From the NCBI RefSeq assembly GCF_000025925.1, contig NC_014033.1, positions 3,510,001 through 3,542,000 of the forward strand: DNA of 32,000 nt, read 5' to 3'. Positions 10,480 through 32,000 of this stretch are shown piece by piece. Under the pieces are notes generated by a model. The model was given only the letters and a program-made list of their open reading frames with translations, ran no database searches and was not told the DNA's origin. The number at the start of each line of letters is the position of its first letter. Position 1 is the stretch's first letter. Made by a program: the position numbers and the translations under genes. This stretch comes from Xylanibacter ruminicola 23. GTDB lineage: Bacteria; Bacteroidota; Bacteroidia; Bacteroidales; Bacteroidaceae.

Positions 10480-11865
10480 ATGTATAGCAGAAGACAATCT
10501 TCCGAAGCCCGTGTCGGCGGTATCGGCATTGGCGGTCAGAACCCCATCCGCATTCAGTCGATGGGAACGGTAGATACCAATAATACCGAGGGCTGTGTGG
10601 CCCAGGCCAAGCGTATTATCGACGCTGGTGGCGAGCTGGTTCGCTTTACCACCCAGGGTACCCGCGAGGCTGAGAACATGAAGAACATTTCGGCCCAGCT
10701 TAAGGCCGATGGTTACAATACACCACTGGTGGCCGATGTGCACTTTACTGCTCATACCGCCGATGTGGCTGCCCAGTACTGTGAGAAGGTGCGTATCAAT
10801 CCAGGCAACTACGTTGATCCAGGTCGTACGTTCAAGCATCTGGAATATACCGATGAGGAGTATGCTGCCGAGTTGCAGAAGATCGAGAAGCAGCTGGTGC
10901 CTTTCCTGAATATCTGTAAGGAGCATCACACGGCAGTACGTATCGGCGTGAACCACGGTTCACTGTCGGATCGTATCATGAGTCGTTACGGCGACACTCC
11001 CGAGGGTATCGTTGAGAGTTGCATGGAGTTCCTGCGTATCTTTAAGCGTGAGAACTTTAACGATGTGGTTATCAGTATCAAGGCCTCTAACACCGTAGTG
11101 ATGGTAACCACTATGCGTCTGCTGGTTAAAACCATGGATAAGGAAGATATGCACTACCCCCTGCACCTAGGTGTTACCGAGGCTGGTGAGGGCGAAGACG
11201 GTCGTATCAAGAGTGCCGTTGGTATTGGTGCCCTGCTTACTGAGGGTATCGGTGATACCATCCGTGTATCATTGAGCGAGGAGCCTGAGTGCGAAATCCC
11301 CGTGGCTCGCAAGCTGGTAGATATGATTCCTGAGTGTACCGCCCTGCGCGAGAAGGCTGAGGCAAGCATCAAGGACGATACCATCACGCTGGATGTGGAT
11401 GCCCCCGATTGGGAAACCCTGCAGCTCAAGGCCGCTATGGCTGTTGGTGCTCTGCTGATAGATAAGAAGGCCCACAACCTGGTAATCAACAGTTCAACGT
11501 TCAAAGATCAAAGTTCAAAGTTGGTAGAGCTTTCTGACGCCATTCTGCAGGCTGCCCGTATCAAGTTTACCAAGACCGAGTATATTTCGTGCCCAGGTTG
11601 CGGTCGTACGCTCTACAATCTGCAGGAAACTATTGCCAAGATTAAAGCTGCCACCAAGGACATGGTAGGCTTGAAGATTGGTATCATGGGCTGTATCGTA
11701 AACGGTCCTGGTGAGATGGCCGATGCCGACTACGGTTACGTAGGTGCCGGACGTGGTAAAATCTCGCTCTACAAGGCTAAGGAGTGTATCGAGAAGAATA
11801 TTCCCGAAGAAGAGGCTGTAGAACGTCTTATCGAATTCATCCGCAAAGACCGCGGCCAGAAATAA
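10480..11865 (+). CDS. ispG: 4-hydroxy-3-methylbut-2-enyl diphosphate synthase
   Basis: TIM-barrel part (IRIQSM...VRFT...RINPGN...RIGVNHGSL). Fe-S domain with ISCPGCGRT and GCIVNGPGE. An ~85-aa insert separates the two domains. Confidence 0.93.
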   Translation: MYSRRQSSEARVGGIGIGGQNPIRIQSMGTVDTNNTEGCVAQAKRIIDAGGELVRFTTQGTREAENMKNISAQLKADGYNTPLVADVHFTAHTADVAAQYCEKVRINPGNYVDPGRTFKHLEYTDEEYAAELQKIEKQLVPFLNICKEHHTAVRIGVNHGSLSDRIMSRYGDTPEGIVESCMEFLRIFKRENFNDVVISIKASNTVVMVTTMRLLVKTMDKEDMHYPLHLGVTEAGEGEDGRIKSAVGIGALLTEGIGDTIRVSLSEEPECEIPVARKLVDMIPECTALREKAEASIKDDTITLDVDAPDWETLQLKAAMAVGALLIDKKAHNLVINSSTFKDQSSKLVELSDAILQAARIKFTKTEYISCPGCGRTLYNLQETIAKIKAATKDMVGLKIGIMGCIVNGPGEMADADYGYVGAGRGKISLYKAKECIEKNIPEEEAVERLIEFIRKDRGQK

Positions 11866-11880
11866 AGACACGATTTTATA

Positions 11881-11978
11881 GGCACGGATAAACACGGCTC
11901 TTTTTTATAAAGAAACACGGCTTTAGTTGCAATACCAAAGCCGTGTTTTTAATTTATTAAAGCCGTGTAATCCGTGCC
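11881..11978. terminator. Bidirectional terminator / nested palindrome between convergent ispG and cobB
   Basis: The central hairpin is AAACACGGCTTT (11913-11924) / AAAGCCGTGTTT (11937-11948) followed by T's. Its outer arms are GGCACGGAT..ACACGGCT (11881-11899) and AGCCGTGT.ATCCGTGCC (11961-11978). The 8-mer ACACGGCT or its complement occurs 4 times. Confidence 0.6.
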
Positions 11979-11984
11979 AAAACC

Positions 11985-12677
11985 TTATTCGCTAAGAATC
12001 TTTACGAGTTCTTTCATACCCTCGCTGGCGCCTTTCTGTATCTGTGTTACGCGACCACCGGCGTTGATGGGATTGGGATCGATAAGGTAAACGGGCACAT
12101 CGGGACGGGCATAGTGCAGCAAACCTGCGGCAGGATAAACCACCAGCGAGGTGCCGATGATAATCAGAATGTCGGCCTCCTGTACCTCTTCGGCTGCTAT
12201 CGTGATGTTAGGCACCGCTTCGCCAAAGAATACGATAAACGGACGCAGTAACGAGCCGTCGCCAGCCTTGGTGCCTGGTTCTATCTCGCAGTTGTCGGGT
12301 GTAAGCTGAATTTGGTAGCGTGGGTCGTCCACATCGCGACTCGAACAAACCTTCATCAGTTCGCCATGCAGGTGAATCACCTTACTTGAGCCTGCCATCT
12401 CGTGCAGGTTGTCAACATTCTGCGTTACAACCGTTACGTCATAGTTTTTCTCAAGTTCGGCCACCAACTTATGTCCCTCGTTTGGCTGCACGTTCCAACA
12501 CTTCTTACGCAGCATATTGTAGAAGTTTGTTACGAGCGTAGGATCGGCCAGCCAACCCTCGTGGGTGGCTACCTTCTGTACGGGATAATTCTCCCACAAA
12601 CCATCGGCATCGCGGAAAGTCTTCAGTCCACTTTCTACCGACATACCTGCACCAGTTAAGACAACAATCTTTTTCAT
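11985..12677 (-). CDS. cobB: NAD-dependent protein deacylase, Sir2 family
   Basis: GAGMSVESGLKTFRDADGLWE, TQNVDNLH, IIIGTSLVVYPAA. 230 aa. Confidence 0.9.
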   Translation of the reverse strand: MKKIVVLTGAGMSVESGLKTFRDADGLWENYPVQKVATHEGWLADPTLVTNFYNMLRKKCWNVQPNEGHKLVAELEKNYDVTVVTQNVDNLHEMAGSSKVIHLHGELMKVCSSRDVDDPRYQIQLTPDNCEIEPGTKAGDGSLLRPFIVFFGEAVPNITIAAEEVQEADILIIIGTSLVVYPAAGLLHYARPDVPVYLIDPNPINAGGRVTQIQKGASEGMKELVKILSE

Positions 12678-12703
12678 AAGAATGATTTTTAAGTTTGATG
12701 TTG

Positions 12704-12711
12704 CAAAAATA
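12704..12711 (-). promoter_or_regulatory. -7 promoter box (minus strand) for cobB
   Basis: The reverse complement reads TATTTTTG, 27 nt upstream of ATG 12677. Confidence 0.45.
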
Positions 12712-12775
12712 CAACTTTTCTGATATAAAAAAGAAATTTTAGCAATTATAATGCATCGGAATAAGAAAAAAAGTG

Positions 12776-21291: not shown

Positions 21292-21828
21292 ATGAGTATC
21301 GTAAAGATAAAGGACAAGTCGTTCAAGATCTCCATTACGGAGGCTGAGATTAAGGAGCGTGTAAAGGCTGTTGCACAGCAGATTAGTAAGGATATGGAGG
21401 GCAAGAATCCTCTGTTGTTAGGTGTGCTGAATGGCGCTTTTATGTTTGCTGCCGATCTGATGCGCGAGATGACTATTCCTTGCGAGATTTCGTTTGTTAA
21501 GCTGGCCTCTTATCAGGGTACCACTTCTACTGGTAAAATCAAGGAGGTGTTCGGTATCAACGAAGACTTGACCAATCGTACGGTGATTATTGTAGAGGAT
21601 ATTGTGGAGAGCGGACTCACCATGAAGCAGATGATTGAGTCGTTAGGCACACGTAATCCCGCATCTATTCATATCTGCACCCTTTTCTTCAAGCCCAGCA
21701 AGCTGAAGGAGAAAATTAACCCCGAGTATGTTGCCTTCAGCATTCCTGACGACTTTATCCTGGGTTACGGACTTGATTACGATCAGCAGGGTCGCGGACT
21801 GAAAGATGTATACACCATTATCGAGTAA
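21292..21828 (+). CDS. hpt: Hypoxanthine(-guanine) phosphoribosyltransferase
   Basis: PRPP-binding motif VIIVEDIVESGLTM, LLGVLNGAFMFAADL, GYGLDYD. 178 aa. Confidence 0.93.
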   Translation: MSIVKIKDKSFKISITEAEIKERVKAVAQQISKDMEGKNPLLLGVLNGAFMFAADLMREMTIPCEISFVKLASYQGTTSTGKIKEVFGINEDLTNRTVIIVEDIVESGLTMKQMIESLGTRNPASIHICTLFFKPSKLKEKINPEYVAFSIPDDFILGYGLDYDQQGRGLKDVYTIIE

Positions 21829-21858
21829 GTAACTTAAATTAAACTAAATATCAGGATA

Positions 21859-22431
21859 ATGAAGAATATCGTTATTTTTGGTGCTCCCGGTTCAGGTAAG
21901 GGAACACAGAGTGATAAGATGATTGAGAAGTACGGTTTGAACCACATTTCAACTGGTGATGTACTTCGTGGTGAAATTAAGAATGGTACCGAGCTGGGTA
22001 AGACTGCTGCCAGCTATATCGAGAAGGGACAGCTGATCCCCGACGATCTGATGGTAAGCATTCTCGCTTCGGTTTACGATAGCTTCGGACGTGATAGCAA
22101 GGGTGTTATCTTCGATGGTTTCCCCCGCACCATCCCACAGGCCGAGGCCCTGAAGAAGATGCTCGACGAGCGTGGCGACAAGGTTGCTGCTATGATCGAG
22201 CTCGATGTTCCCGAGGACGAGCTGATGAAGCGCCTCATTCTGCGTGGTCAGCAGAGCGGCCGTGCCGACGATAATGAGGAGACCATCAAGAAGCGTCTCG
22301 TGGTTTACCACTCTCAGACAATGCCACTTATCGAGTGGTACAAGCAGGAGGGTGTTCACTATCACATCGACGGTCTGGGTGAGCTCGACCGCATTTTTGC
22401 AGACATTTGCCAGGTTATTGACAATATCTAA
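21859..22431 (+). CDS. adk: Adenylate kinase (short-lid type)
   Basis: P-loop IFGAPGSGKGTQ, STGDVLR, DGFPRT, GRADDNEETIKKRL. 190 aa. Confidence 0.96.
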   Translation: MKNIVIFGAPGSGKGTQSDKMIEKYGLNHISTGDVLRGEIKNGTELGKTAASYIEKGQLIPDDLMVSILASVYDSFGRDSKGVIFDGFPRTIPQAEALKKMLDERGDKVAAMIELDVPEDELMKRLILRGQQSGRADDNEETIKKRLVVYHSQTMPLIEWYKQEGVHYHIDGLGELDRIFADICQVIDNI

Positions 22432-23601
22432 ATGGAGAGTAATTTCGTAGACTACGTAAAGATTTACTGCCGCTCTGGAAAGGGTGGTAAGGGCAGTATG
22501 CACTTGCGCCATGTAAAGTATAATCCCAATGGCGGTCCTGATGGTGGTGATGGTGGAAAAGGCGGAAGCATTATTCTGCGTGGAAACCATAACTACTGGA
22601 CTTTGCTCCACTTAAAGTACGAGCGCCATATTTTTGCCGAGCACGGTGGAAATGGCGGTCGCGACAAGTGTCATGGTACCGACGGAAAGGATGTTTACAT
22701 TGATGTGCCTTGTGGTACCGTGGTGTATAATGCCGAAACCGGTAAGTACGTCTGCGATGTTACATACGATGGTCAGGAAGTCATGCTGCTTAAGGGCGGT
22801 CGTGGCGGATTGGGTAACTTCCAGTTCCGCACAGCCACCAATCAGGCGCCCCGTTATGCGCAGCCTGGTGAGCCCATGCAGGAGATGACTATTATTCTTG
22901 AATTGAAACTTTTAGCTGATGTGGGCTTGGTAGGTTTTCCTAATGCAGGAAAATCTACCCTGGTCTCATCGCTGTCAAATGCTAAGCCCAAGATTGCCAA
23001 TTACCCATTTACTACGATGGAGCCTTCGCTGGGTATCGTAGGTTATCGCGACAACAAGTCGTTTGTGATGGCCGATATTCCTGGTATTATCGAAGGTGCC
23101 TCTGAAGGTAAGGGCTTGGGACTTAGATTCTTACGACATATTGAGCGCAACTCGCTCCTGCTGTTCATGGTACCAGGTGATACCGATGATATCAAGCGTG
23201 AGTATGAGATTCTGCTCAACGAACTTCAGCAGTTCAATCCCGAGATGCTCGACAAGCATCGTGTGCTGGCCGTTACCAAGTGCGACCTGCTTGATGAGGA
23301 GTTGGTTGAGATGCTGAAGGAAACCCTGCCTCAGGATCTGCCTGTGGTATTCATTTCAGCCGTAACGGGTTATGGTCTCGACGAACTCAAGGATGTGCTT
23401 TGGAACGAGTTGAATGCCGAAAGCAACAAGCTTAACGTCATCACCTCGGAGGATTCGCTGGTACATCGCGACAAGGATATGAGCCGTTTTGCTCAGGAGC
23501 TTGCCGACGAGGGCGAGGACGAGGATATCGAGTACATCGACGAGGATGATATCGAAGATATCGAGGACTTTGAATACGAGGACTTCGACGACGAAGCATA
23601 A
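22432..23601 (+). CDS. obg: GTPase Obg/CgtA with strongly acidic C-terminal tail
   Basis: Starts directly after the adk stop. Gly-rich Obg fold ([24 protein letters not shown]). G1 [10 protein letters not shown]3 DIPG, G4 TKCD. Tail [31 protein letters not shown]. Confidence 0.96.
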
Positions 23602-23639: not shown

Positions 23640-23670
23640 CCGATTTATAACTTTAAATCGGATTTTTTTT
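23640..23670 (+). terminator. Intrinsic terminator after obg
   Basis: Stem CCGATTTA (23640-23647) / TAAATCGG (23654-23661), then ATTTTTTTT. Confidence 0.7.
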
Positions 23671-23672
23671 CA

Positions 23673-23680
23673 TATCTTTG
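23673..23680 (+). promoter_or_regulatory. -7 promoter box for the TBDR/lipoprotein/nuclease cluster
   Basis: TATCTTTG lies directly after the obg terminator, 64 nt upstream of ATG 23744. Confidence 0.5.
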
Positions 23681-23743
23681 CACCGAAATTTAAACAATCC
23701 GGATTATATCCGCTCATTTAATTAATTAAAACAGTTCTAGTTT

Positions 23744-26700
23744 ATGCAGAAAAGATTGCTCTTTCTGGTTGCTTTAATGTTAACTTTCTCGTTAACATTG
23801 ATGGCACAAATCACAACTTCAAGTATGGCTGGAAAGGTGACCCTCGACACAGCGAATGGCGAGGAAGTCATCGGTGCTACAGTTGTGGCTGTACACGAGC
23901 CCTCTGGTACTCGTTACACAGCAGTAACTAATACCACAGGTCGTTTCTCGATCAATGGTATGCGTACTGGTGGTCCTTACGCAGTGACCATCTCTTACAT
24001 TGGTTTCCAGCCCAAAACCGTCAAGGGTATTACCCTCCAGCTGGCTGAAACCTACAACCTGAATGTATTCCTCACCGAGGATGCTACCGAGCTTGCAGAG
24101 GTTGTTGTAAGCGGTAAGGCTTCAAAGTTTGCTGCTGAGAAGACGGGTGCTGCTACTAACATTAACAGTACGCAGATCACAAACCTGCCAACCGTTAGCC
24201 GTTCTATTACAGATGTAACACGTCTGTCTCCTTACGGAGGTAACGGCATGAGCTTCGCTGGTAGCGATGGTCGTAACGCTAACTTCACCGTTGATGGTGC
24301 TAACTTCAACAACAACTTCGGTCTTTCTGACAAGTTGCCTGGTGGTGGTAACCCAATCTCTATCGATGCTATCGAGGAGTTGCAGGTTGTTATCTCTCCA
24401 TACGATGTTCGTCAGACCAACTTCATCGGTGGTGGTGTAAACGCTATTACCAAGTCGGGTACTAACACCTTCAAGGGTAGTGCTTATGTTTACCACAAGA
24501 ACGAGAACATGCAGGGTGACGCTGTAAATCGTCAGCAGATCCAGGGCGCTCGTGAGAAGGCTCAGACTACTACTTACGGTTTCACACTGGGTGGTCCAAT
24601 CATTAAGAACAAGCTCTTCTTCTTCGTAAACGGTGAAATGATCAAGATTCCTTCAATCGTTAACCGTTGGAAGGGTTCAGATGATGGTAAGGCCGATGCC
24701 GACAACTACATCTCTCGTACTACTAACAAGGATCTTGAGGCTGTTTCTAAGTACATGGCCAGCAAGTATGGTTATGATACCGGTTCATGGACCAGCTTCC
24801 CTGCTGATGAGAGCAACTACAAGCTGATGGCTCGTTTGGACTGGAACATCACCGATCGTCATCACCTGGCTTTGCGCTATAACTATACAAAGAATAATAT
24901 CTGGAACTCGCCTAACGGTACTTCTATGGACGGTGGTACTCGTATGGCTTCTTACCGTATGTCACAGACTTCAATGTCGTTCGCTAACTCAATGTACTCA
25001 ATGGAGAACCTCGTTCACTCTTGGTCATTGGATTTGAACAGCCGTCTGACCGACAACCTGTCGAACCAGTTCCTGGCTACTATCTCTAAGCTCGACGACG
25101 TTCGTGGCACTAACTCTGCTGAGTTCCCATTCATCGATATCACTCGCGATGGCGATAACTATATGGCTCTCGGTTACGAGCTGTTTACTTGGAACAACGC
25201 CGTTCATAACACTATCTGGAACATCAAGGATGATGTTACCTATTATATGGGCGACCACAAGATTATGGCTGGTATTACCTTCGAGCATCAGATGGCCGAC
25301 AACCAGTACATGCGTAATGGTTCTGGTTACTATCGCTACAACATCACCGACGATATGTATGTAGGCGGTGTACTGCAGCCAGATATGCTGTTCAACAGCA
25401 CACCTGAGGTATTCTGCTTGACTTACGGTTACGATGGTGAGGCTGCTCCTGCAGCTCGCGTACAGTTCAACCGTCCTGGTATCTATGCTCAGGATGAGTG
25501 GAACGTTAACAATAAGCTGAAGCTCACATACGGTCTGCGTGTTGACGGTCTGTTCTTCAACAACAGCGACCTGATGACTAACGCTGCTATTCTGAACCTC
25601 GACTACAACGGTCGTCACATCGATACCGGTAAGTGGCCTAAGAACAGCATCACCTTCTCTCCACGTCTCGGCTTCACCTACGATGTATTCGGTGACAAGA
25701 GTCTGAAGGTTCGTGGTGGTACTGGTCTTTTCTCTGGTCGTCTGCCTTTGGTATTCTTCACCAACATGCCAACCAACGGTGGTCTGGTTCAGTATCAGGC
25801 ACAGATCAACGAGAAGAACGCTGCCAAGAAGGGCTTCTCTATGGACGTGTTCGCTGGTGGTCCTATGACCAAGGTTAGCGATATGATTGCTAAGCTGCAG
25901 AGCCTGGGCTATCCTACAACTGTTAAGCCTGAGGACGGAACTGTTCCTTCAGCTGTTAACGGTGTAGATCCTAAGTTCAAGATGCCTTAGGTATGGAAGA
26001 CTTCTGTTGCTATCGACTATCAGCTGCCTGTTGACTTCCCATTCTCAGTTTCTGTTGAGGGTATCTACAACAAGACTATCAATGCTGTGTCAATCTCTGA
26101 CTGGAGCATTAAGAACGTAGGTGGTTTCGCTCGCTTCAACGGTGCCGACAACCGTCCTATCTTCCCCGATGATTTCCGCAGCGGTACAAAGGCATTCGTG
26201 CTCGAGAACACCAGCAAGGGTTACGGTTGGAGTGCTAACGTTACTCTGAACGCTCAGCCTGCTGATTGGATTAGCTTGATGGCTGCTTATACTCACACTG
26301 TATCTAAGGAGGTTACCGGTATGCCTGGTTCGGCTGCTGAGTCTGCCTTCACATACGTTCCTACTTACGAGGGTCCAAACAACATCAAGTTGCACAACTC
26401 TCAGTATGTAACTCCTGATCGTCTGATCGCTTCTGCTACTATCCACGATAAGTGCGGTAACCACTATAACTTCATCTACGAGGCATATCGTGGTGGCTAC
26501 AACTACTCTTACACAACTGTTAACGATATGAACGGCGACGGTTACAACTACGACGCTATCTATATCCCAACAGATGATCAGGTAGGTGTTGGTACAGGCG
26601 ACTTCCGCTTCAAGACTCAGGACGACCTGACTCGCTTCATGGACTATGTTCATAAGGATAGCTACCTGAGCAAGCATCAGGGTACTTACGCCGAGGCTTA

Positions 26701-27034
26701 CAGCGTTTACTCTCCATGGGTACACCGCATCGACTTCGGTTACAAGCACGACTTCAAGTTCAACGTAGGTCAGACTAAGCACATGCTGCAGCTCACCTTC
26801 GATATGAAGAACGTTCTTAACTTCTTCAACTCTTCTTGGGGTGTTGCTAAGCACCTGAATCCTGAGATTGGTAGCGAGGCTAAGATCCTGAAGTACGAGG
26901 GCGTTGATGCACAGGGTTATGCAACCTTCTCTACACCTTCTTCTATCAGCGGTAATACTCAGACTTGGACTACCAACTACGCTATCGGTCAGTGCTGGTA
27001 CGCTTCTGTAGGTATCAAGTATTATTTCAACTAA
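23744..27034 (+). pseudogene. TonB-dependent receptor (CarboxypepD_reg-like N-domain + plug + large barrel; not SusC-type) interrupted by one in-frame TAG at 25988-25990
   Basis: ORF-track entries 23744-25990 and 26087-27034 are in the same frame, and the 32 codons between them are open. Signal peptide ...LTLMA|Q. CarboxypepD_reg-like segment GKVTLDT...GPYAVTISYIGFQ. Plug motifs (ISIDAIEELQVVISPYDVRQTNFIGGGVNAITKSGTN). C-terminal aromatic end ...VGIKYYFN. Confidence 0.8.
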
Positions 27035-27054
27035 TTAATTAAGGTAAGATTAAT

Positions 27055-28569
27055 ATGAAACTTAAATATTTCATTCCGTCTCTCGTAGCAGTTGTAGCAG
27101 CTGTATTCACAAGCTGTTCTGACGGTAAGGATGCTACCTATCTTGAGGGAATTCGCGTTTCTCAGTCGTATGTAGCTCTGAACACTGCTGGTGGTTCTGC
27201 CTCTATCGATGTAACCACCAATGGTAGCTGGACTGTTACTGAGGTTCCCAACTGGCTCACCGTTTCGCCTGCCTCTGGTACAGGTAACGGTACTATCACT
27301 TTCTCGGCCGACGCTGGCGAGGGTCGTAGCGGTTCAGTAAAGCTTAACTGTGGCGACGAGACTCAGATCGTCAACATCATTCAGGGTGTTGTAACTATCA
27401 GCCCTGCTACTTGTGCTGAGGTTCTGGCTGGTCCCGACTCTAAGACTTATCAGGTAACTGGTACTGTTACCAGCATTGTAAATACCACTTATGGTAACTG
27501 GTACTTGAACGATGGTACTGGTGAGGTTTACATCTATGGTACACTCGACTCTAAGGGTAGCACCAAGAACTTCAGCAGCTGGGGCCTCGAGGTAGGCGAC
27601 CAGATTACTGTTCAGGGTCCAAAGACTACTTATAATGGTACTGTAGAGCTGGTTGACGTAACTGTTGTTAAGATTGTTAAGTCACTCATCAAGGTTGATT
27701 CTCTCACAGTTGGTGGCGTTAAGGCTACTGAGCTGCCTGTAGCTGGTGGCGAGATCACTGCTCACCTCACCTGCAAGGGTACTGGCGTAGCTGTTGAGAT
27801 TCCTGCCGACGCTAAGGATTGGCTGGGTGTTACCTCTTCAACAGTAGGTACTAACCCAACTGTTACCTTCTATGCTAAGGCTAACGAGGGTGGCGACCGT
27901 GAGACAACTGTTACCTTCAAGACCACCGATGGTTCTAAGGAGTACAGCTCACAGGCTACTATTTCTCAGAAGGGTGCTATCGTTGAGTGCAGCATTGCCG
28001 ACTTCCTGGCTGCTGCTGTAGGTAATACTCAGTTCCGCCTCACTGGTGTTATCACCAAGATTGCTAATGCATCTTATGGTAACATCTACATTAAGGACTA
28101 CTCTGGCGAGACTTACGTTTATGGCGTAGGTTCTAAGGGCGACTTCGAGAAGCTTGGCCTGAAGGGGGGTGATGTTATTACTCTCGTAGGTAAGCGTGGC
28201 GAGTACAAGGGAACTGCCCAGATGACTGGTGGTCAGTTCGAGAAGTCAATCAAGGTAACTGAGGTTTCAATCGCCGAGTTCCTGGCTAAGGAGGATGCTG
28301 CTAATGTTTACTATAGAGTATCTGGTACTATCGACGAGATTGCCAACGATACTTATGGTAACCTGTACATCACAGATGGTACCAACCGCCTGTATGTATA
28401 TGGCACATATCCTGGATGGGGTGCTACCGGTGATAACCGTAAGGGCGCTATCAAGAATCTGGGTATCGCAGTAGGCGACAAGCTCACCGTTATCGGTGTT
28501 AAGTCAACCTACAAGGATACTCCTCAGGTTAATGGTGGTATCTACTTCTCTCACGAGAAAGCTGAGTAA
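27055..28569 (+). CDS. Lipoprotein with modular architecture BACON-like / OB-like / BACON-like / OB-like / OB-like (putative surface nucleic-acid-binding protein)
   Basis: Lipobox AAVFTSC|SDGKD. BACON-like segments at aa 34-110 (SQSYVALNTAGGSASIDVTTNGSWTV...WLTVSPASGTGNGTITFSA) and aa 212-306. Three mutually similar ~95-aa repeats at aa 115-207, 309-399 and 402-500. The repeats share the core xTGxVxxIxNxxYGNxYxxDxxGxxYVYG ... GDxxTVxGxxxxYxGTxxx. The OB-fold assignment is by pattern only. Confidence 0.85.
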   Translation: MKLKYFIPSLVAVVAAVFTSCSDGKDATYLEGIRVSQSYVALNTAGGSASIDVTTNGSWTVTEVPNWLTVSPASGTGNGTITFSADAGEGRSGSVKLNCGDETQIVNIIQGVVTISPATCAEVLAGPDSKTYQVTGTVTSIVNTTYGNWYLNDGTGEVYIYGTLDSKGSTKNFSSWGLEVGDQITVQGPKTTYNGTVELVDVTVVKIVKSLIKVDSLTVGGVKATELPVAGGEITAHLTCKGTGVAVEIPADAKDWLGVTSSTVGTNPTVTFYAKANEGGDRETTVTFKTTDGSKEYSSQATISQKGAIVECSIADFLAAAVGNTQFRLTGVITKIANASYGNIYIKDYSGETYVYGVGSKGDFEKLGLKGGDVITLVGKRGEYKGTAQMTGGQFEKSIKVTEVSIAEFLAKEDAANVYYRVSGTIDEIANDTYGNLYITDGTNRLYVYGTYPGWGATGDNRKGAIKNLGIAVGDKLTVIGVKSTYKDTPQVNGGIYFSHEKAE

Positions 28570-28594
28570 AAATTAGATAAAGCTCAAAACTAAC

Positions 28595-28633
28595 GCGCCA
28601 AAATGTTGTGGATAGCGACATTTTGGCGCTTTT
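28595..28633 (+). terminator. Strong hairpin/terminator between the lipoprotein and nuclease genes
   Basis: Perfect 12-bp stem GCGCCAAAATGT (28595-28606) / ACATTTTGGCGC (28618-28629), 11-nt loop, then TTTT. It ends 13 nt before the nuclease ATG. Confidence 0.65.
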
Positions 28634-28646
28634 AAATTCGATAAGT

Positions 28647-29594
28647 ATGAATAAGATGTTTTATTCTTTAGCAGTCTTTGCATTTGTTGCTTGCGGTGGT
28701 GGTAGCAGTAGTAGCGATGGTCCTAATCCTACTCCCGATCCAACGCCTACACCTACACCAACTCCTACAGTAGGCAATGCTAATAAGAACGATGCTTCTG
28801 AGAATGCCTATCTGGCTCGTTTGGAAATGCCTAAGGCTCGTACCGATTCAAAGGTTATTACCCATACTACCAAGGATTATGGCGTAACCTATTCGGTAGA
28901 GTGGGATAGTAATATCCGTGCTCAGCGCTGGACTTGTTACGATATGAACAAGCGCAACGCTGCCAAGAACGGTAATACCCGTAAGTCGCTTTGGCCTGAT
29001 GGTGATCCCTGGAACTACGATCCCGATGTAGCTACGAGCGATCAGCAGGCCACCTATAGCGAGCTCAGCAAGAGCTATTATCCTGGTTCTAAGGATTATT
29101 ACGAAAAGGGTCACGTTTGTCCTTCAAACGACCGCCTTTATACCAAGGATGCTAACGAGCAGACTTTCTACATGACTAACATTCTGCCAATGGTAGGTAA
29201 GTTTAATGGTAAGCTTTGGCAGAAGATGGAGCTGCAGGTAAACAGCTGGGCTCAGAAGTTGGGCGATGGCGACACCATTTTTATCTGTAAAGGTGGTACC
29301 ATCGATAAGGCCGATCAGATTCTTGGCAAGACAATCAACAATCATGTCGTGCCCAAGTACTTCTTCATGGCGCTGTTGTTTAAGAACGCTTCTGGCCCCG
29401 TACGTATGTTAGGCTTCTGGGCCGAGCATCTGAACGAAGACCATTCGAACGATGCCCTGAAAGGCTATGTAGTAAGCATCGACGATCTGGAGCAGAAAAC
29501 AGGTATCGATTTCTTCTGTAACCTGCCCGACGATGTCGAGGAACAGTTAGAGGCTACGAAGAGCGAAGACATCATTTCTGCTTGGGGCCTTTAA
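28647..29594 (+). CDS. DNA/RNA non-specific endonuclease (Serratia NucA / Endonuclease_NS family), lipoprotein with Pro/Thr linker
   Basis: Start moved to ATG 28647 (MNKMFYSLAVFAFVAC|GGGSSSS), because the track start 28608 lies inside the terminator hairpin. Linker NPTPDPTPTPTPTPT. Catalytic block YYEKGHVCPSNDR (the DRGH-type His) and the metal-binding Asn in MTNILPM. Confidence 0.88.
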   Translation: MNKMFYSLAVFAFVACGGGSSSSDGPNPTPDPTPTPTPTPTVGNANKNDASENAYLARLEMPKARTDSKVITHTTKDYGVTYSVEWDSNIRAQRWTCYDMNKRNAAKNGNTRKSLWPDGDPWNYDPDVATSDQQATYSELSKSYYPGSKDYYEKGHVCPSNDRLYTKDANEQTFYMTNILPMVGKFNGKLWQKMELQVNSWAQKLGDGDTIFICKGGTIDKADQILGKTINNHVVPKYFFMALLFKNASGPVRMLGFWAEHLNEDHSNDALKGYVVSIDDLEQKTGIDFFCNLPDDVEEQLEATKSEDIISAWGL

Positions 29595-29626
29595 GCTACT
29601 ATTTGAAAAGTACTTAGATTTCAATT

Positions 29627-29673
29627 GAAAAGTACCTGGAACGCAAATGTTTTCTAGGTACTTTTCATTTTTT
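29627..29673 (+). terminator. Intrinsic terminator after the nuclease gene
   Basis: Stem GAAAAGTACCT (29627-29637) / AGGTACTTTTC (29656-29666), then ATTTTTTG. A near-copy of the left arm (GAAAAGTACTT, 29605-29615) could pair alternatively. Confidence 0.65.
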
Positions 29674-29718
29674 GTGGTTTTTATGTCAAAAAAACTTGCA
29701 TCATATTGTTTTATTTTG

Positions 29719-29726
29719 TATCTTTG
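29719..29726 (+). promoter_or_regulatory. -7 promoter box for the second TonB-dependent receptor
   Basis: TATCTTTG, 33 nt upstream of ATG 29759. Confidence 0.5.
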
Positions 29727-29758
29727 CCCCGCAAGTGGAACAATTTAACTGGTTGAAG

Positions 29759-32000
29759 ATGAAAAGACTTTCTACATTACTATTTGTACTTTTGACAATA
29801 TCGCTTTCTGTTATGGCTCAGGTTACTACATCTGGTATTACAGGTGTGGTGATGGCTGATGGCGAAGAGGCTATCGGTGCTACCGTTACGGCCAAGCATG
29901 TGCCTTCGGGCTCTATCTATCGTGGTGTTACCAATATCGATGGTCACTACACGATTACAGGCATGAAGGCGGGCGGACCTTACGAGGTTGAAATATCGTA
30001 TATCGGTTTCCAGACATCGCGTTTTACCGATATCCAGTTGGCCCTGGGTCAGAATGCTGTGGTTGATGCCACGCTGAGCGAGGGCTCAGAGATGATTCAG
30101 GAGATTGTGGTAACAGCTAAGGCCAACAACACTATGCGTAGCGACCGTAGTGGCGCTGTAACCAGCCTGAACGCTAACCAGATGGCTGCTGTGCCTAATA
30201 TCGGTCGTTCTATGCTGGATATCATGAAGATGACGCCACAGTCGAGCTCGGCCAGCGGTATGGCTATTGGTGGTGGAAACTACCGCCAGTCGTATGTCAC
30301 CATCGATGGTGCCTCGTTCAACGATTCGTTCGGAATGGAACCCAGTCCGCTGCCTGGTGGCGGCACTCCCATCTCGCTCGAGGCACTCGATCAGATGACC
30401 GTTTCGGTTACGCCTTACGATGTGCGTCAGAGTGGTTTTACTGGCGGTGGTGTGAATGCGGTTACCAAGAGTGGTACCAACACCTTTAAGGGTATGGCCT
30501 ATACCTTCCTGACCAGTTCCGACCTGAAGGGTAAGAAGATTCGTAACGACCGGTTGCCCGTATCCAAGGGGCATAACAGCACCTTTGGCTTGAGCTTTGG
30601 CGGACCGATTATCCAGGATAAGCTCTTCTTCTTCCTTAACGGCGAGTACGAGGATAATGTGACGGCTGGCCCAGCCGTGATGGCTTATAACCGCAGCGAC
30701 CAGCCCTATTCGGCCACGAATCGTCGCCCCAAGTTGGCCGAGCTCGAGAGTCTGTCCACCTACATGCAGAACGCTTATGGTATTACCACAGGTCCTTGGC
30801 AGAATTATAACCTGAAAACGCCCGCCTACCGTATTCTGGCCCGTATCGACTGGAACATCAACGACGATCATAAGTTTAATGTGCGCTTCACCAAGTCGAA
30901 CCGTAAGGAGGCCAACCCCGCTTCGGCATCGCGTAGTATCGGTAGCAATCGCACCTCTATTATCTATGGTGGCAACCAGAACTCGTATGGCGGCAATACC
31001 GATTATGGTATGTCGTCGCTCTCAAGCCGTTATATGACCGAGTTCCGCTTCACTTCGGTGGCTGCCGAGCTCAATAGCAAGTTCGGTAAGCTGCATAACA
31101 CCCTGCGTGGCACCTACTCGTATCAGGACCAGCCCCGTAGCAACGAGTATGGTGTTGATGTACCTGTGGTTGAGATTGTGATGAGCGATGGTCAGGGCCA
31201 TTATCCTTACTGGGCGCTTACCGGCGATTTGTTTACTTATGGCAATGTGGCCAAAACCAAGACTACCGTGATTACCGACGAAATCAATATCCAGTTGGGT
31301 AAGCACAACCTGTTTGGCGGTTTGCAGTACGAGCACAACTGGGCTGCCAACGGCTATGCTCAGGCAGGTGCCGGCTATTATGCCTTCCAGGCCAGTCAGG
31401 ACGAGATAGATAAGGCCATCGTAAACAACGACTGGGGGCCGATTTTCGCAGTAGATCACACCCGCTTGTTTGGTATCACCTATGGCAATGGCGACAATCA
31501 CGATCATTTTTTGGCTAAGATGAGCACCAACCAGTGGTCGCTCTATCTGCAGGACAACATGAGCCTCTCCGATCGTTTCCGCATGTCGCTTGGTCTGCGT
31601 TTCGAGCTGCCGTCTTATCCCAGTCTGAAGGATAATTTCAACGAGGAGTATTATAAGATTAGCTTTGGTGGCGAGCATTTCCGCACCGATAACGTGCCAA
31701 ATGCCAGCATCTCGGTATCGCCGCGTGTGGGCTTCAACTGGGATATCACCGGCAATCGTAACCTGATACTGCGTGGTGGTTCGGGCCTCTTCATCGGTCG
31801 CCTGCCGTTTGTTTGGCTCATCTCGGCTGTAGGCAACTCAGGTATGGGACAAACCTCGTATATTGCCTCGCAAACCAAGGGTATTATTCCTACCTTTACC
31901 ACCAGTCAGCAGAATATGCTGCAGCAGATAGGTGCTCAGAGCAAGATTTCGGTGCCCAGCAGCGCCACTATCCTGAGCGATAACCTGCGTATGCCCAAAA
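29759..32000 (+). CDS. TonB-dependent receptor, paralogue of 23744-27034; 3' end outside window (absent from supplied ORF track)
   Basis: My own translation from ATG 29759 stays open to the window end (747 codons). It begins MKRLSTLLFVLLTISLSVMA|QVTTSGITGVVMADGEEAIGATVTAKHVPSGSIYRGVTNIDGHYTITGMKAGGPYEVEISYIGFQ, and contains ISLEALDQMTVSVTPYDVRQSGFTGGGVNAVTKSGTNTFKG. It is collinear with TBDR1 up to ...SDNLRMPK. The three minus-strand track ORFs here are antisense shadows. Confidence 0.88.
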   Translation, partial: MKRLSTLLFVLLTISLSVMAQVTTSGITGVVMADGEEAIGATVTAKHVPSGSIYRGVTNIDGHYTITGMKAGGPYEVEISYIGFQTSRFTDIQLALGQNAVVDATLSEGSEMIQEIVVTAKANNTMRSDRSGAVTSLNANQMAAVPNIGRSMLDIMKMTPQSSSASGMAIGGGNYRQSYVTIDGASFNDSFGMEPSPLPGGGTPISLEALDQMTVSVTPYDVRQSGFTGGGVNAVTKSGTNTFKGMAYTFLTSSDLKGKKIRNDRLPVSKGHNSTFGLSFGGPIIQDKLFFFLNGEYEDNVTAGPAVMAYNRSDQPYSATNRRPKLAELESLSTYMQNAYGITTGPWQNYNLKTPAYRILARIDWNINDDHKFNVRFTKSNRKEANPASASRSIGSNRTSIIYGGNQNSYGGNTDYGMSSLSSRYMTEFRFTSVAAELNSKFGKLHNTLRGTYSYQDQPRSNEYGVDVPVVEIVMSDGQGHYPYWALTGDLFTYGNVAKTKTTVITDEINIQLGKHNLFGGLQYEHNWAANGYAQAGAGYYAFQASQDEIDKAIVNNDWGPIFAVDHTRLFGITYGNGDNHDHFLAKMSTNQWSLYLQDNMSLSDRFRMSLGLRFELPSYPSLKDNFNEEYYKISFGGEHFRTDNVPNASISVSPRVGFNWDITGNRNLILRGGSGLFIGRLPFVWLISAVGNSGMGQTSYIASQTKGIIPTFTTSQQNMLQQIGAQSKISVPSSATILSDNLRMPK

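Follow-up and report, generated by a model that had tools for sequence, protein, structure and literature searches.

A SusD-less transporter–lipoprotein pair in Xylanibacter ruminicola 23 as a candidate outer-membrane system for nucleic-acid capture and import

What does an outer-membrane transport locus carry when it is laid out like a polysaccharide utilization locus (PUL) and has a nuclease as its hydrolase and no SusD-like gene? The question is raised by four consecutive plus-strand genes at the end of a 32,000-nucleotide stretch of Xylanibacter (Prevotella) ruminicola 23 DNA (contig NC_014033.1, positions 3,510,001 to 3,542,000), which we call the window and whose numbering we use throughout. 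Open reading frame (ORF) calls place these genes where an earlier note on this DNA had drawn them: a TonB-dependent receptor, TBDR1 (23744-27034; 1096 codons, interrupted by a TAG codon), a BACON/OB lipoprotein of 504 amino acids (27055-28569), an Endonuclease_NS lipoprotein of 315 amino acids (28647-29594) and a second receptor, TBDR2 (29759-32000), cut by the end of the window. The earlier note took them for a SusD-less system that binds nucleic acids, cuts them and imports the products. Comparative and structural inference lends strong support to the core of that proposal, although its conserved four-gene operon and its intact TBDR1 do not stand. We consider it probable that the locus specifies an outer-membrane nucleic-acid capture and import system that follows the logic of the ddb loci of gut Bacteroides with different family members.

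The conserved unit of the locus is a pair of genes. The lipoprotein has at least 468 matches among species-representative genomes, from which the best 80 loci were kept (related loci are cited below by L numbers, with coordinates of their own), and 6070 clusters in a set of 50%-identity cluster representatives match it at E up to 1e-3; in a plasmid collection the lipoprotein has no match. A TBDR1 ortholog lies directly upstream of the lipoprotein gene and on the same strand in 78 of the 78 related loci that include an upstream flank. These orthologs are 66-94% identical to TBDR1, the gap to the lipoprotein gene is about 20-45 nucleotides, and the taxa that carry the pair include Prevotellaceae, Muribaculaceae, Sodaliphilus and Marinilabiliales. 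An ortholog of the nuclease was found in three of 82 loci (L001, L002 and L005), and TBDR2 is confined to close Prevotella relatives. Because of these two restricted distributions, the conserved unit is TBDR1 with the lipoprotein, an obligate gene pair to which the nuclease and TBDR2 are accessory.

The lipoprotein (ADE83098.1/WP_013065084.1) begins with a type II signal peptide with Cys21, and its modules, all encoded on the plus strand, follow one another in the order BACON1-OB1-BACON2-OB2-OB3, in keeping with the BACON domain and three OB-like modules described earlier. BACON1 (27142-27390, residues 30-112) matches Pfam families PF13004 and PF19190 and forms a beta-sandwich in the structural model; BACON2 (27685-27975, residues 211-307) is 36% identical to it and is the second of two stretches matched by PF13004 (4.8e-18, 65.3 bits against a gathering cut-off of 25). 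OB1 (27391-27684, residues 113-210) is defined by its secondary structure and by its similarity to OB2 and OB3. The three OB modules are paralogous, with 36-42% identity and E values of about 1e-18 to 1e-20, and the OB-fold Pfam match in the lipoprotein is weak. The OB2-OB3 tandem (27976-28566, residues 308-504) resembles HIN and DUF5689 domains, and in hhalign residues 312-448 aligned with a DUF5689 profile with a probability of 91.8% and an E value of 7e-7, which points to a relationship of remote homology only. Relatives of the lipoprotein are named 'DNA-binding protein' or 'RPA family protein' in some public sources.

An AlphaFold2 model of OB2-OB3 (pLDDT 96.2, pTM 0.88) was used for Foldseek searches; this replaced a search with the full-length lipoprotein model, which had returned generic multi-domain beta-sandwich chains only. 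The top PDB matches of the tandem were the HIN domains of p204 (HINab, in complex with double-stranded DNA), p205 and p202, the double-stranded DNA complex 4JBM among them, followed by RPA-DNA complexes, SSB, CST and the anticodon-binding OB domain of lysyl-tRNA synthetase (LysRS). The modeled tandem matched HIN, RPA, SSB, CST and LysRS OB domains with a Foldseek probability of 1.0, and single OB folds superposed with root-mean-square deviations of 3.5-4 Å over about 100 residues, as expected of a nucleic-acid-binding OB fold with its five-stranded barrel.

These domains also admit a different cargo. It was in carbohydrate-active proteins that BACON domains were first described, a GH16 enzyme is the only PDB sequence match to the N-terminal region of the lipoprotein, and some OB folds bind oligosaccharides. 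The pair could accordingly be imagined to take up a glycan or another non-nucleic-acid polymer through its BACON and OB domains, the nuclease being an unrelated insertion between transporter genes. The acidity of the lipoprotein and the hairpins that isolate the nuclease gene (both described below) would suit such a reading, but the top fold matches do not, since all of them are nucleic-acid-binding OB proteins.

The third gene encodes what the earlier note recognized as a DNA/RNA non-specific endonuclease. The protein is a lipoprotein with Cys16, a linker rich in Pro and Thr and, at residues 81-295, a catalytic domain that matches Pfam Endonuclease_NS (PF01223) at 4.7e-35. Against the Anabaena NucA structures 2O3B and 1ZM8 the E values are about 1e-12 (1.3e-12), and the predicted catalytic His156, Mg-binding Asn187 and Glu195 align with their NucA counterparts, as would be expected of a member of this family; its motif reads EKGH, compared with DRGH. 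With its signal peptide, the product of 28647-29594 gives the locus a signal-peptide nuclease of the kind by which ddb loci are recognized.

Genes that flank the pair in its relatives bear directly on the cargo. Neighboring genes were clustered, Pfam was run on the cluster representatives, and five families were counted: the nucleic-acid hydrolases Endonuclease_NS, Endonuclease_1, NPP phosphodiesterase and EEP, and DUF5689. At least 43 of the 82 loci have a gene of one of the hydrolase families or of DUF5689 within 5 kb of the pair, nearly always adjacent and on the same strand. The commonest neighbor, in 25-26 loci, is a phosphodiesterase of the NPP type that carries a signal peptide. Endonuclease_NS adjoins the pair in 12 loci, frequently as a fusion with BACON plus either the OB module seen here or DUF5689, Endonuclease_1 in 6-7 loci, where it occupies the position that the nuclease has in the present locus, a DUF5689 gene in eight and an EEP nuclease in four. 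In L040, L042, L049 and L050 a Riemerella-type DUF5689/choice-of-anchor J protein stands alone. A type IX secretion system C-terminal domain considered for the Endonuclease_1 neighbor was dropped for want of NCBIfam support. Downstream of the pair, several loci encode proteins of about 540-600 amino acids that combine CarboxypepD_reg with a small barrel (for example L043 11738-13531 and L066 8300-9928).

Between the lipoprotein gene and TBDR2, close Prevotella relatives have Endonuclease_NS, Endonuclease_1 (L004, L006, L007, L008 and L034, at about 11600-12720) or nothing (L003 and L009). The alternation of the two endonucleases in this slot is a non-orthologous displacement by a second nuclease family. 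In L026, L038, L043, L045, L071, L075, L076 and L077 the pair is adjoined by lipoproteins in which BACON and the OB module or DUF5689 are fused to Endonuclease_NS, in the arrangements BACON-DUF5689-BACON-Endonuclease_NS and BACON-OB-Endonuclease_NS; examples lie at L043 4572-6638 (also in L045, L075 and L076), L026 11581-13017 and L071 12078-13784. These fusions link the BACON, OB and DUF5689 binding modules to the function of a nuclease.

For a glycan as cargo these neighborhoods are unfavorable. In the related loci no carbohydrate-active enzyme (CAZyme) gene is a repeated neighbor of the pair, one unrelated amylase-like gene upstream in some of them apart. The adjacent slot is instead occupied time and again by five families linked to the hydrolysis or binding of nucleic acids, and in relatives the OB modules themselves are fused to Endonuclease_NS. 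That about 37 of the 82 loci have no hydrolase gene beside the pair counts on the side of the glycan; we nonetheless regard glycan uptake as very improbable. SusC/SusD-like pairs found upstream of TBDR1 in L018 and L056 were set aside as ordinary PULs unrelated to the system. Taken together, the obligate pairing, the five recurring families, the Endonuclease_NS fusions, the DUF5689 homology and the HIN-, RPA- and SSB-like folds support nucleic acid as the substrate.

The locus shares with SusC/SusD PULs a transporter, a cognate surface lipoprotein gene directly downstream of it and a surface hydrolase lipoprotein. It differs from them in that its transporter is not of the SusC/RagA type, SusD and CAZymes are missing and the hydrolase is a nuclease. 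The protein downstream of TBDR1 had no SusD match in Pfam or NCBIfam and none of the four genes is SusD-like; both receptors fall outside SusC/RagA, the NCBIfam model TIGR04056 scoring 55.7 bits against a cut-off of 368.25 and through the N-terminal domain only. On both counts we concur with the earlier note. The earlier note was aware of no characterized Bacteroidota system with this composition, yet a characterized system with the same logic has been published, and a claim of no precedent fails. The ddbABCDEF locus of Bacteroides thetaiotaomicron encodes three nucleases, the TonB-dependent transporter DdbC, a DUF5689 partner, DdbD, with a HIN-like predicted fold, and the lipoprotein DdbE, and its deletion abolishes DNA depletion (Sharan et al., PNAS 2025, PMC12478041). 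The study has its forerunners in BT3560-3563 of B. thetaiotaomicron VPI-5482 (Bechon et al. 2022, PMC8851478) and in a gene pair of Riemerella anatipestifer. Its authors matched DdbD to 4JBM (PMC12478041), an entry that is also among our top OB2-OB3 matches.

Like ddb and BT3560-3563, the present locus is arranged like a PUL that has no SusD, and its transporter starts with a CarboxypepD_reg domain. Next to the transporter gene is that of a partner other than SusD, with a modeled fold akin to tandem OB domains of the HIN type; nucleases that are lipoproteins and/or periplasmic belong to the locus, and its accessory genes vary by subtype. Unlike in ddb, the partner is a BACON-OB-BACON-OB-OB protein that is not DUF5689 by Pfam and is linked to that family by hhalign only (92%), and the transporters are Oar-type barrels (PF25183) of about 1100 amino acids. 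Four ddb subtypes are distinguished, and a locus is assigned to one of them when its DdbC exceeds 50% identity and 75% coverage against one of the queries Bt1 (WP_008762511.1), Bt2 (WP_055220680.1), Pv1 (WP_005843284.1) and Pv2 (WP_117829583.1) (PMC12478041).

In Bacteroides finegoldii L086 a 916-residue TonB-dependent transporter is followed by DUF5689 and Exo_endo_phos_3, a gene order from which we infer a Bt-type-like ddb locus. Its transporter has no PF25183 barrel match and, by BLASTP, no significant similarity to our receptors beyond the N-terminal domain (E 0.077 against TBDR1, in the N-terminal region only, and 0.24 against TBDR2), and its nuclease is Exo_endo_phos_3 where ours is Endonuclease_NS. 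EEP or NPP genes are the neighbors of Oar-type relatives of TBDR1 in Bacteroides ovatus (41% identity), B. finegoldii (32%) and Parabacteroides distasonis (53%). These relatives may represent the Pv type of the published scheme. When the B. ovatus transporter was used to search for homologs, relatives from B. thetaiotaomicron and B. pyogenes were returned and nothing named P. vulgatus, and none of the four DdbC accessions appeared in the clusters of lipoprotein representatives, of Bacteroides relatives of TBDR1 or of the window proteins. The Oar-type transporters of B. ovatus (L083 8001-12391) and B. finegoldii (L085 8001-12381) are 36% identical to each other and occupy the same slot between ettA and EEP, which recalls the replacement of ddb subtypes at a fixed position. 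Four PLSDB records labeled as plasmids (NZ_OY725757.1, NZ_OY725934.1, NZ_OY725948.1 and NZ_CP081918.1) carry ddb-like loci, PULs and housekeeping genes, ettA among them, and look like chromosome fragments.

The Riemerella pair suggests another use for imported DNA. In R. anatipestifer, RA0C_RS04915, a CarboxypepD_reg outer-membrane protein, and RA0C_RS04920, a protein with DUF5689 and DUF5017/choice-of-anchor J domains, are essential for natural transformation (PMC8459023). Like our locus, this pair joins a SusD-less transporter to a surface protein of the OB/DUF5689 type with a nuclease gene nearby. TBDR1 and the lipoprotein could in the same way perform the outer-membrane step of transformation, the OB lipoprotein binding intact DNA that then goes through the barrel for later ComEC-dependent uptake, with no nutritional role. 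The remote homology of the OB2-OB3 tandem to the DUF5689 domain of the transformation-essential Riemerella protein fits such a role, as do the very strong conservation of the pair (58-94% identity across orders), the nuclease that also adjoins the Riemerella genes and the presence directly upstream of TBDR1 in L042, L049 and L050 of a Riemerella-type NF052645 protein (DUF5689 plus choice-of-anchor J, 184.7 bits). The window itself contains no NF052645 member, and its lipoprotein matches no NCBIfam family. The Riemerella pair differs in serving transformation, as shown genetically, and in the architecture of its partner; moreover, the present locus has no linked competence genes (comEC, dprA) and degradative enzymes are the usual neighbors of the pair. 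The commonest of these, periplasmic NPP and then non-specific endonucleases, would destroy transforming DNA, and we therefore judge a role in transformation unlikely.

The transporters themselves belong to a family for which export has been considered. We define an Oar-like TonB-dependent transporter as one with an N-terminal CarboxypepD_reg domain (PF13620) and an OMP_b-brl_4 barrel (PF25183), and both receptors match the two families strongly, TBDR1 at 1.5e-17 and 1.7e-49 and TBDR2 at 1e-15 and 2.6e-40. TBDR1 (WP_033150480.1) has a type I signal peptide, CarboxypepD_reg at residues 29-110, a weak plug match and the OMP_b-brl_4 barrel. The Oar protein of Myxococcus is linked to protein secretion, being needed for secretion of the protease PopC; no cognate OB-fold lipoprotein is known for it. 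One or both of our barrels might similarly carry the nuclease or the lipoprotein out to the cell surface, where extracellular DNA (eDNA), biofilm DNA or DNA of neutrophil extracellular traps would be degraded without import. The names 'Oar-like' given to relatives in UniRef and the part that BT3563-type nucleases play in biofilm eDNA remodeling (PMC8851478) lend this some color. We give it very little credence: many of the loci that keep the pair contain no nuclease that could be exported, the frequent NPP partner with a signal peptide fits the processing of imported material, and the tight pairing of transporter and lipoprotein parallels the SusCD and DdbCD importers.

TBDR1 is not the single intact ORF that the earlier note described. 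An in-frame TAG codon at 25988-25990 on the plus strand replaces Gln749 (context KFKMP*VWK) and divides the gene into a 748-codon part and a remainder. Two public contigs, L001 (GCA_019973335.1) and L002 (a Logan assembly, SRR4090641), have CAG at this position and an intact 1096-residue TBDR1, and this base is the sole difference from the window over 14,946 and 11,624 nucleotides, respectively. The possibility that TAG is an artefact of the window sequence was rejected, since two independent assemblies in ENA (ERZ761560 and ERZ1023040), 100% identical in their DNA, carry the same TAG; both alleles are thus real in public data. Among 94 aligned homologs, position 749 is Q in 52, M in 28 and K in 14, with no stops. 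With its reading frame broken by the nonsense codon, the core transporter has probably lost its activity in the present strain, and the TAG allele could be a natural or a laboratory loss-of-function variant in X. ruminicola.

No partner lipoprotein gene accompanies TBDR2, whose identity to TBDR1 is only 32%. In L001 the protein is 1105 amino acids long, and glyS is the next gene downstream.

How the genes are expressed can be read in part from the signals around them, all on the plus strand. A terminator hairpin with a T-run behind obg (23640-23661) forms the upstream boundary of the locus and was also recovered as conserved in nine relatives when RNAalifold was applied to the promoter alignment. 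Directly after it, as the earlier note had seen, is a Bacteroidetes-type −7 box, TATCTTTG (23673-23680), predicted to serve TBDR1 and the lipoprotein gene; the promoter motif TAnnTTTGC..CGAAA is invariant across nine related Prevotella loci. The 5′ leader of TBDR1 contains a stem-loop, CGGAT-TAT-ATCCG (23700-23712), followed by an invariant TAATTAAAACAGT block, and together these (23700-23737) may be a regulatory element. In the nine related Prevotella loci the position and pairing of the leader stem are kept while its sequence differs. RNAalifold on the promoter alignment recovered the obg terminator only, the leader hairpin appearing in single-sequence folds only, and Rfam had no family match across the whole window, so that the leader holds no known riboswitch. 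Directly upstream lie hpt, adk and obg (21292-23601), genes of purine salvage and housekeeping in an arrangement that about 20 Prevotella loci share.

Strong hairpins stand on both sides of the nuclease gene. The first, with a 15-bp stem (28595-28629), lies between the lipoprotein and nuclease genes in a spacer with a folding energy of −24.5 kcal/mol and is terminator-like or attenuator-like. It overlaps an alternative nuclease start, GTG at 28608, and this overlap supports ATG 28647 as the true start. The second, terminator-like and 3′ of the nuclease gene, is formed by GAAAAGTACCT ... AGGTACTTTTC (29627-29666) and is followed by the U-run ATTTTTTG, the whole spanning 29627-29674. A second TATCTTTG box (29719-29726) is situated 33 nucleotides upstream of the TBDR2 start codon. 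Because hairpins flank the nuclease gene and TBDR2 has a promoter box of its own, a single four-gene operon is unlikely, and the one promoter that had been proposed for all four genes does not stand; the nuclease gene looks like a cassette in a variable slot.

Several observations weigh against nucleic-acid import by this locus. In the lipoprotein, Pfam finds no DUF5689 at E up to 10 and NCBIfam no family; for the tandem as a whole Foldseek gives low TM-scores, 0.36-0.38, good superposition being limited to single OB folds; the mature protein is acidic (isoelectric point 4.96), OB2 being its only basic module; and the residues after its cysteine are CSDGKD, compared with the CSDD consensus of its relatives. 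The nuclease does not have the canonical lipoprotein export signal after its cysteine (CGGGSSSSDG) and for that reason may face the periplasm. Its ortholog is present in so few loci, and its gene here is so clearly set off by hairpins, that adjacency is what couples it to the pair in the present locus; the loci with no hydrolase gene beside the pair point the same way. The Plug and TonB-barrel Pfam matches of TBDR1 are weak, which leaves family membership as the ground for TonB dependence, and TBDR1 is truncated in the present sequence. Finally, the support for the present variant is comparative and structural in kind.

With these points taken into account we still favor import of nucleic acids, and a mechanism can be outlined. 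Its core would be the Oar-type TBDR1 and the lipoprotein encoded about 20 nucleotides downstream. The lipoprotein, with three OB folds spaced by two BACON domains, would be seated on the transporter and exposed at the surface as a non-specific binder of DNA or RNA. As an accessory in the variable slot, the Endonuclease_NS lipoprotein would cut the polymer to oligonucleotides, which TBDR1 would move into the periplasm. In many relatives the periplasmic NPP-type phosphodiesterase encoded just downstream may then free 5′-nucleotides for salvage. TBDR2, a distant paralog with its own promoter box, might also take part.

A broader proposal is more tentative. The TBDR1–lipoprotein pair may constitute a separate, unclassified family of nucleic-acid or oligonucleotide importers that lies outside the four ddb subtypes, is wider in distribution and more conserved than they are and offers a plug-in slot for interchangeable nucleases; we think it a possibility somewhat short of an even chance, and one under which the pair could be the main nucleotide-scavenging route of Prevotellaceae and Muribaculaceae in the rumen. 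X. ruminicola, with CAG in some sequences and TAG in others on a background that is otherwise identical, would offer a ready-made natural knockout and a genetic handle that is immediately at hand. If the import of nucleic acids is correct, the range of DNA-utilization loci would grow from a few Bacteroides of the human gut to take in a very large group of Bacteroidia from rumen, gut and marine settings, in which the transporter is of another family and the modular binding protein is another one. A highly conserved lipoprotein now labeled 'BACON domain-containing protein', 'DNA-binding protein' or 'hypothetical protein' would gain a function, and there would be a hint of how the abundant Prevotella of the rumen recycle the nucleic acids of microbes and feed, which make up a large pool of phosphorus and nitrogen.

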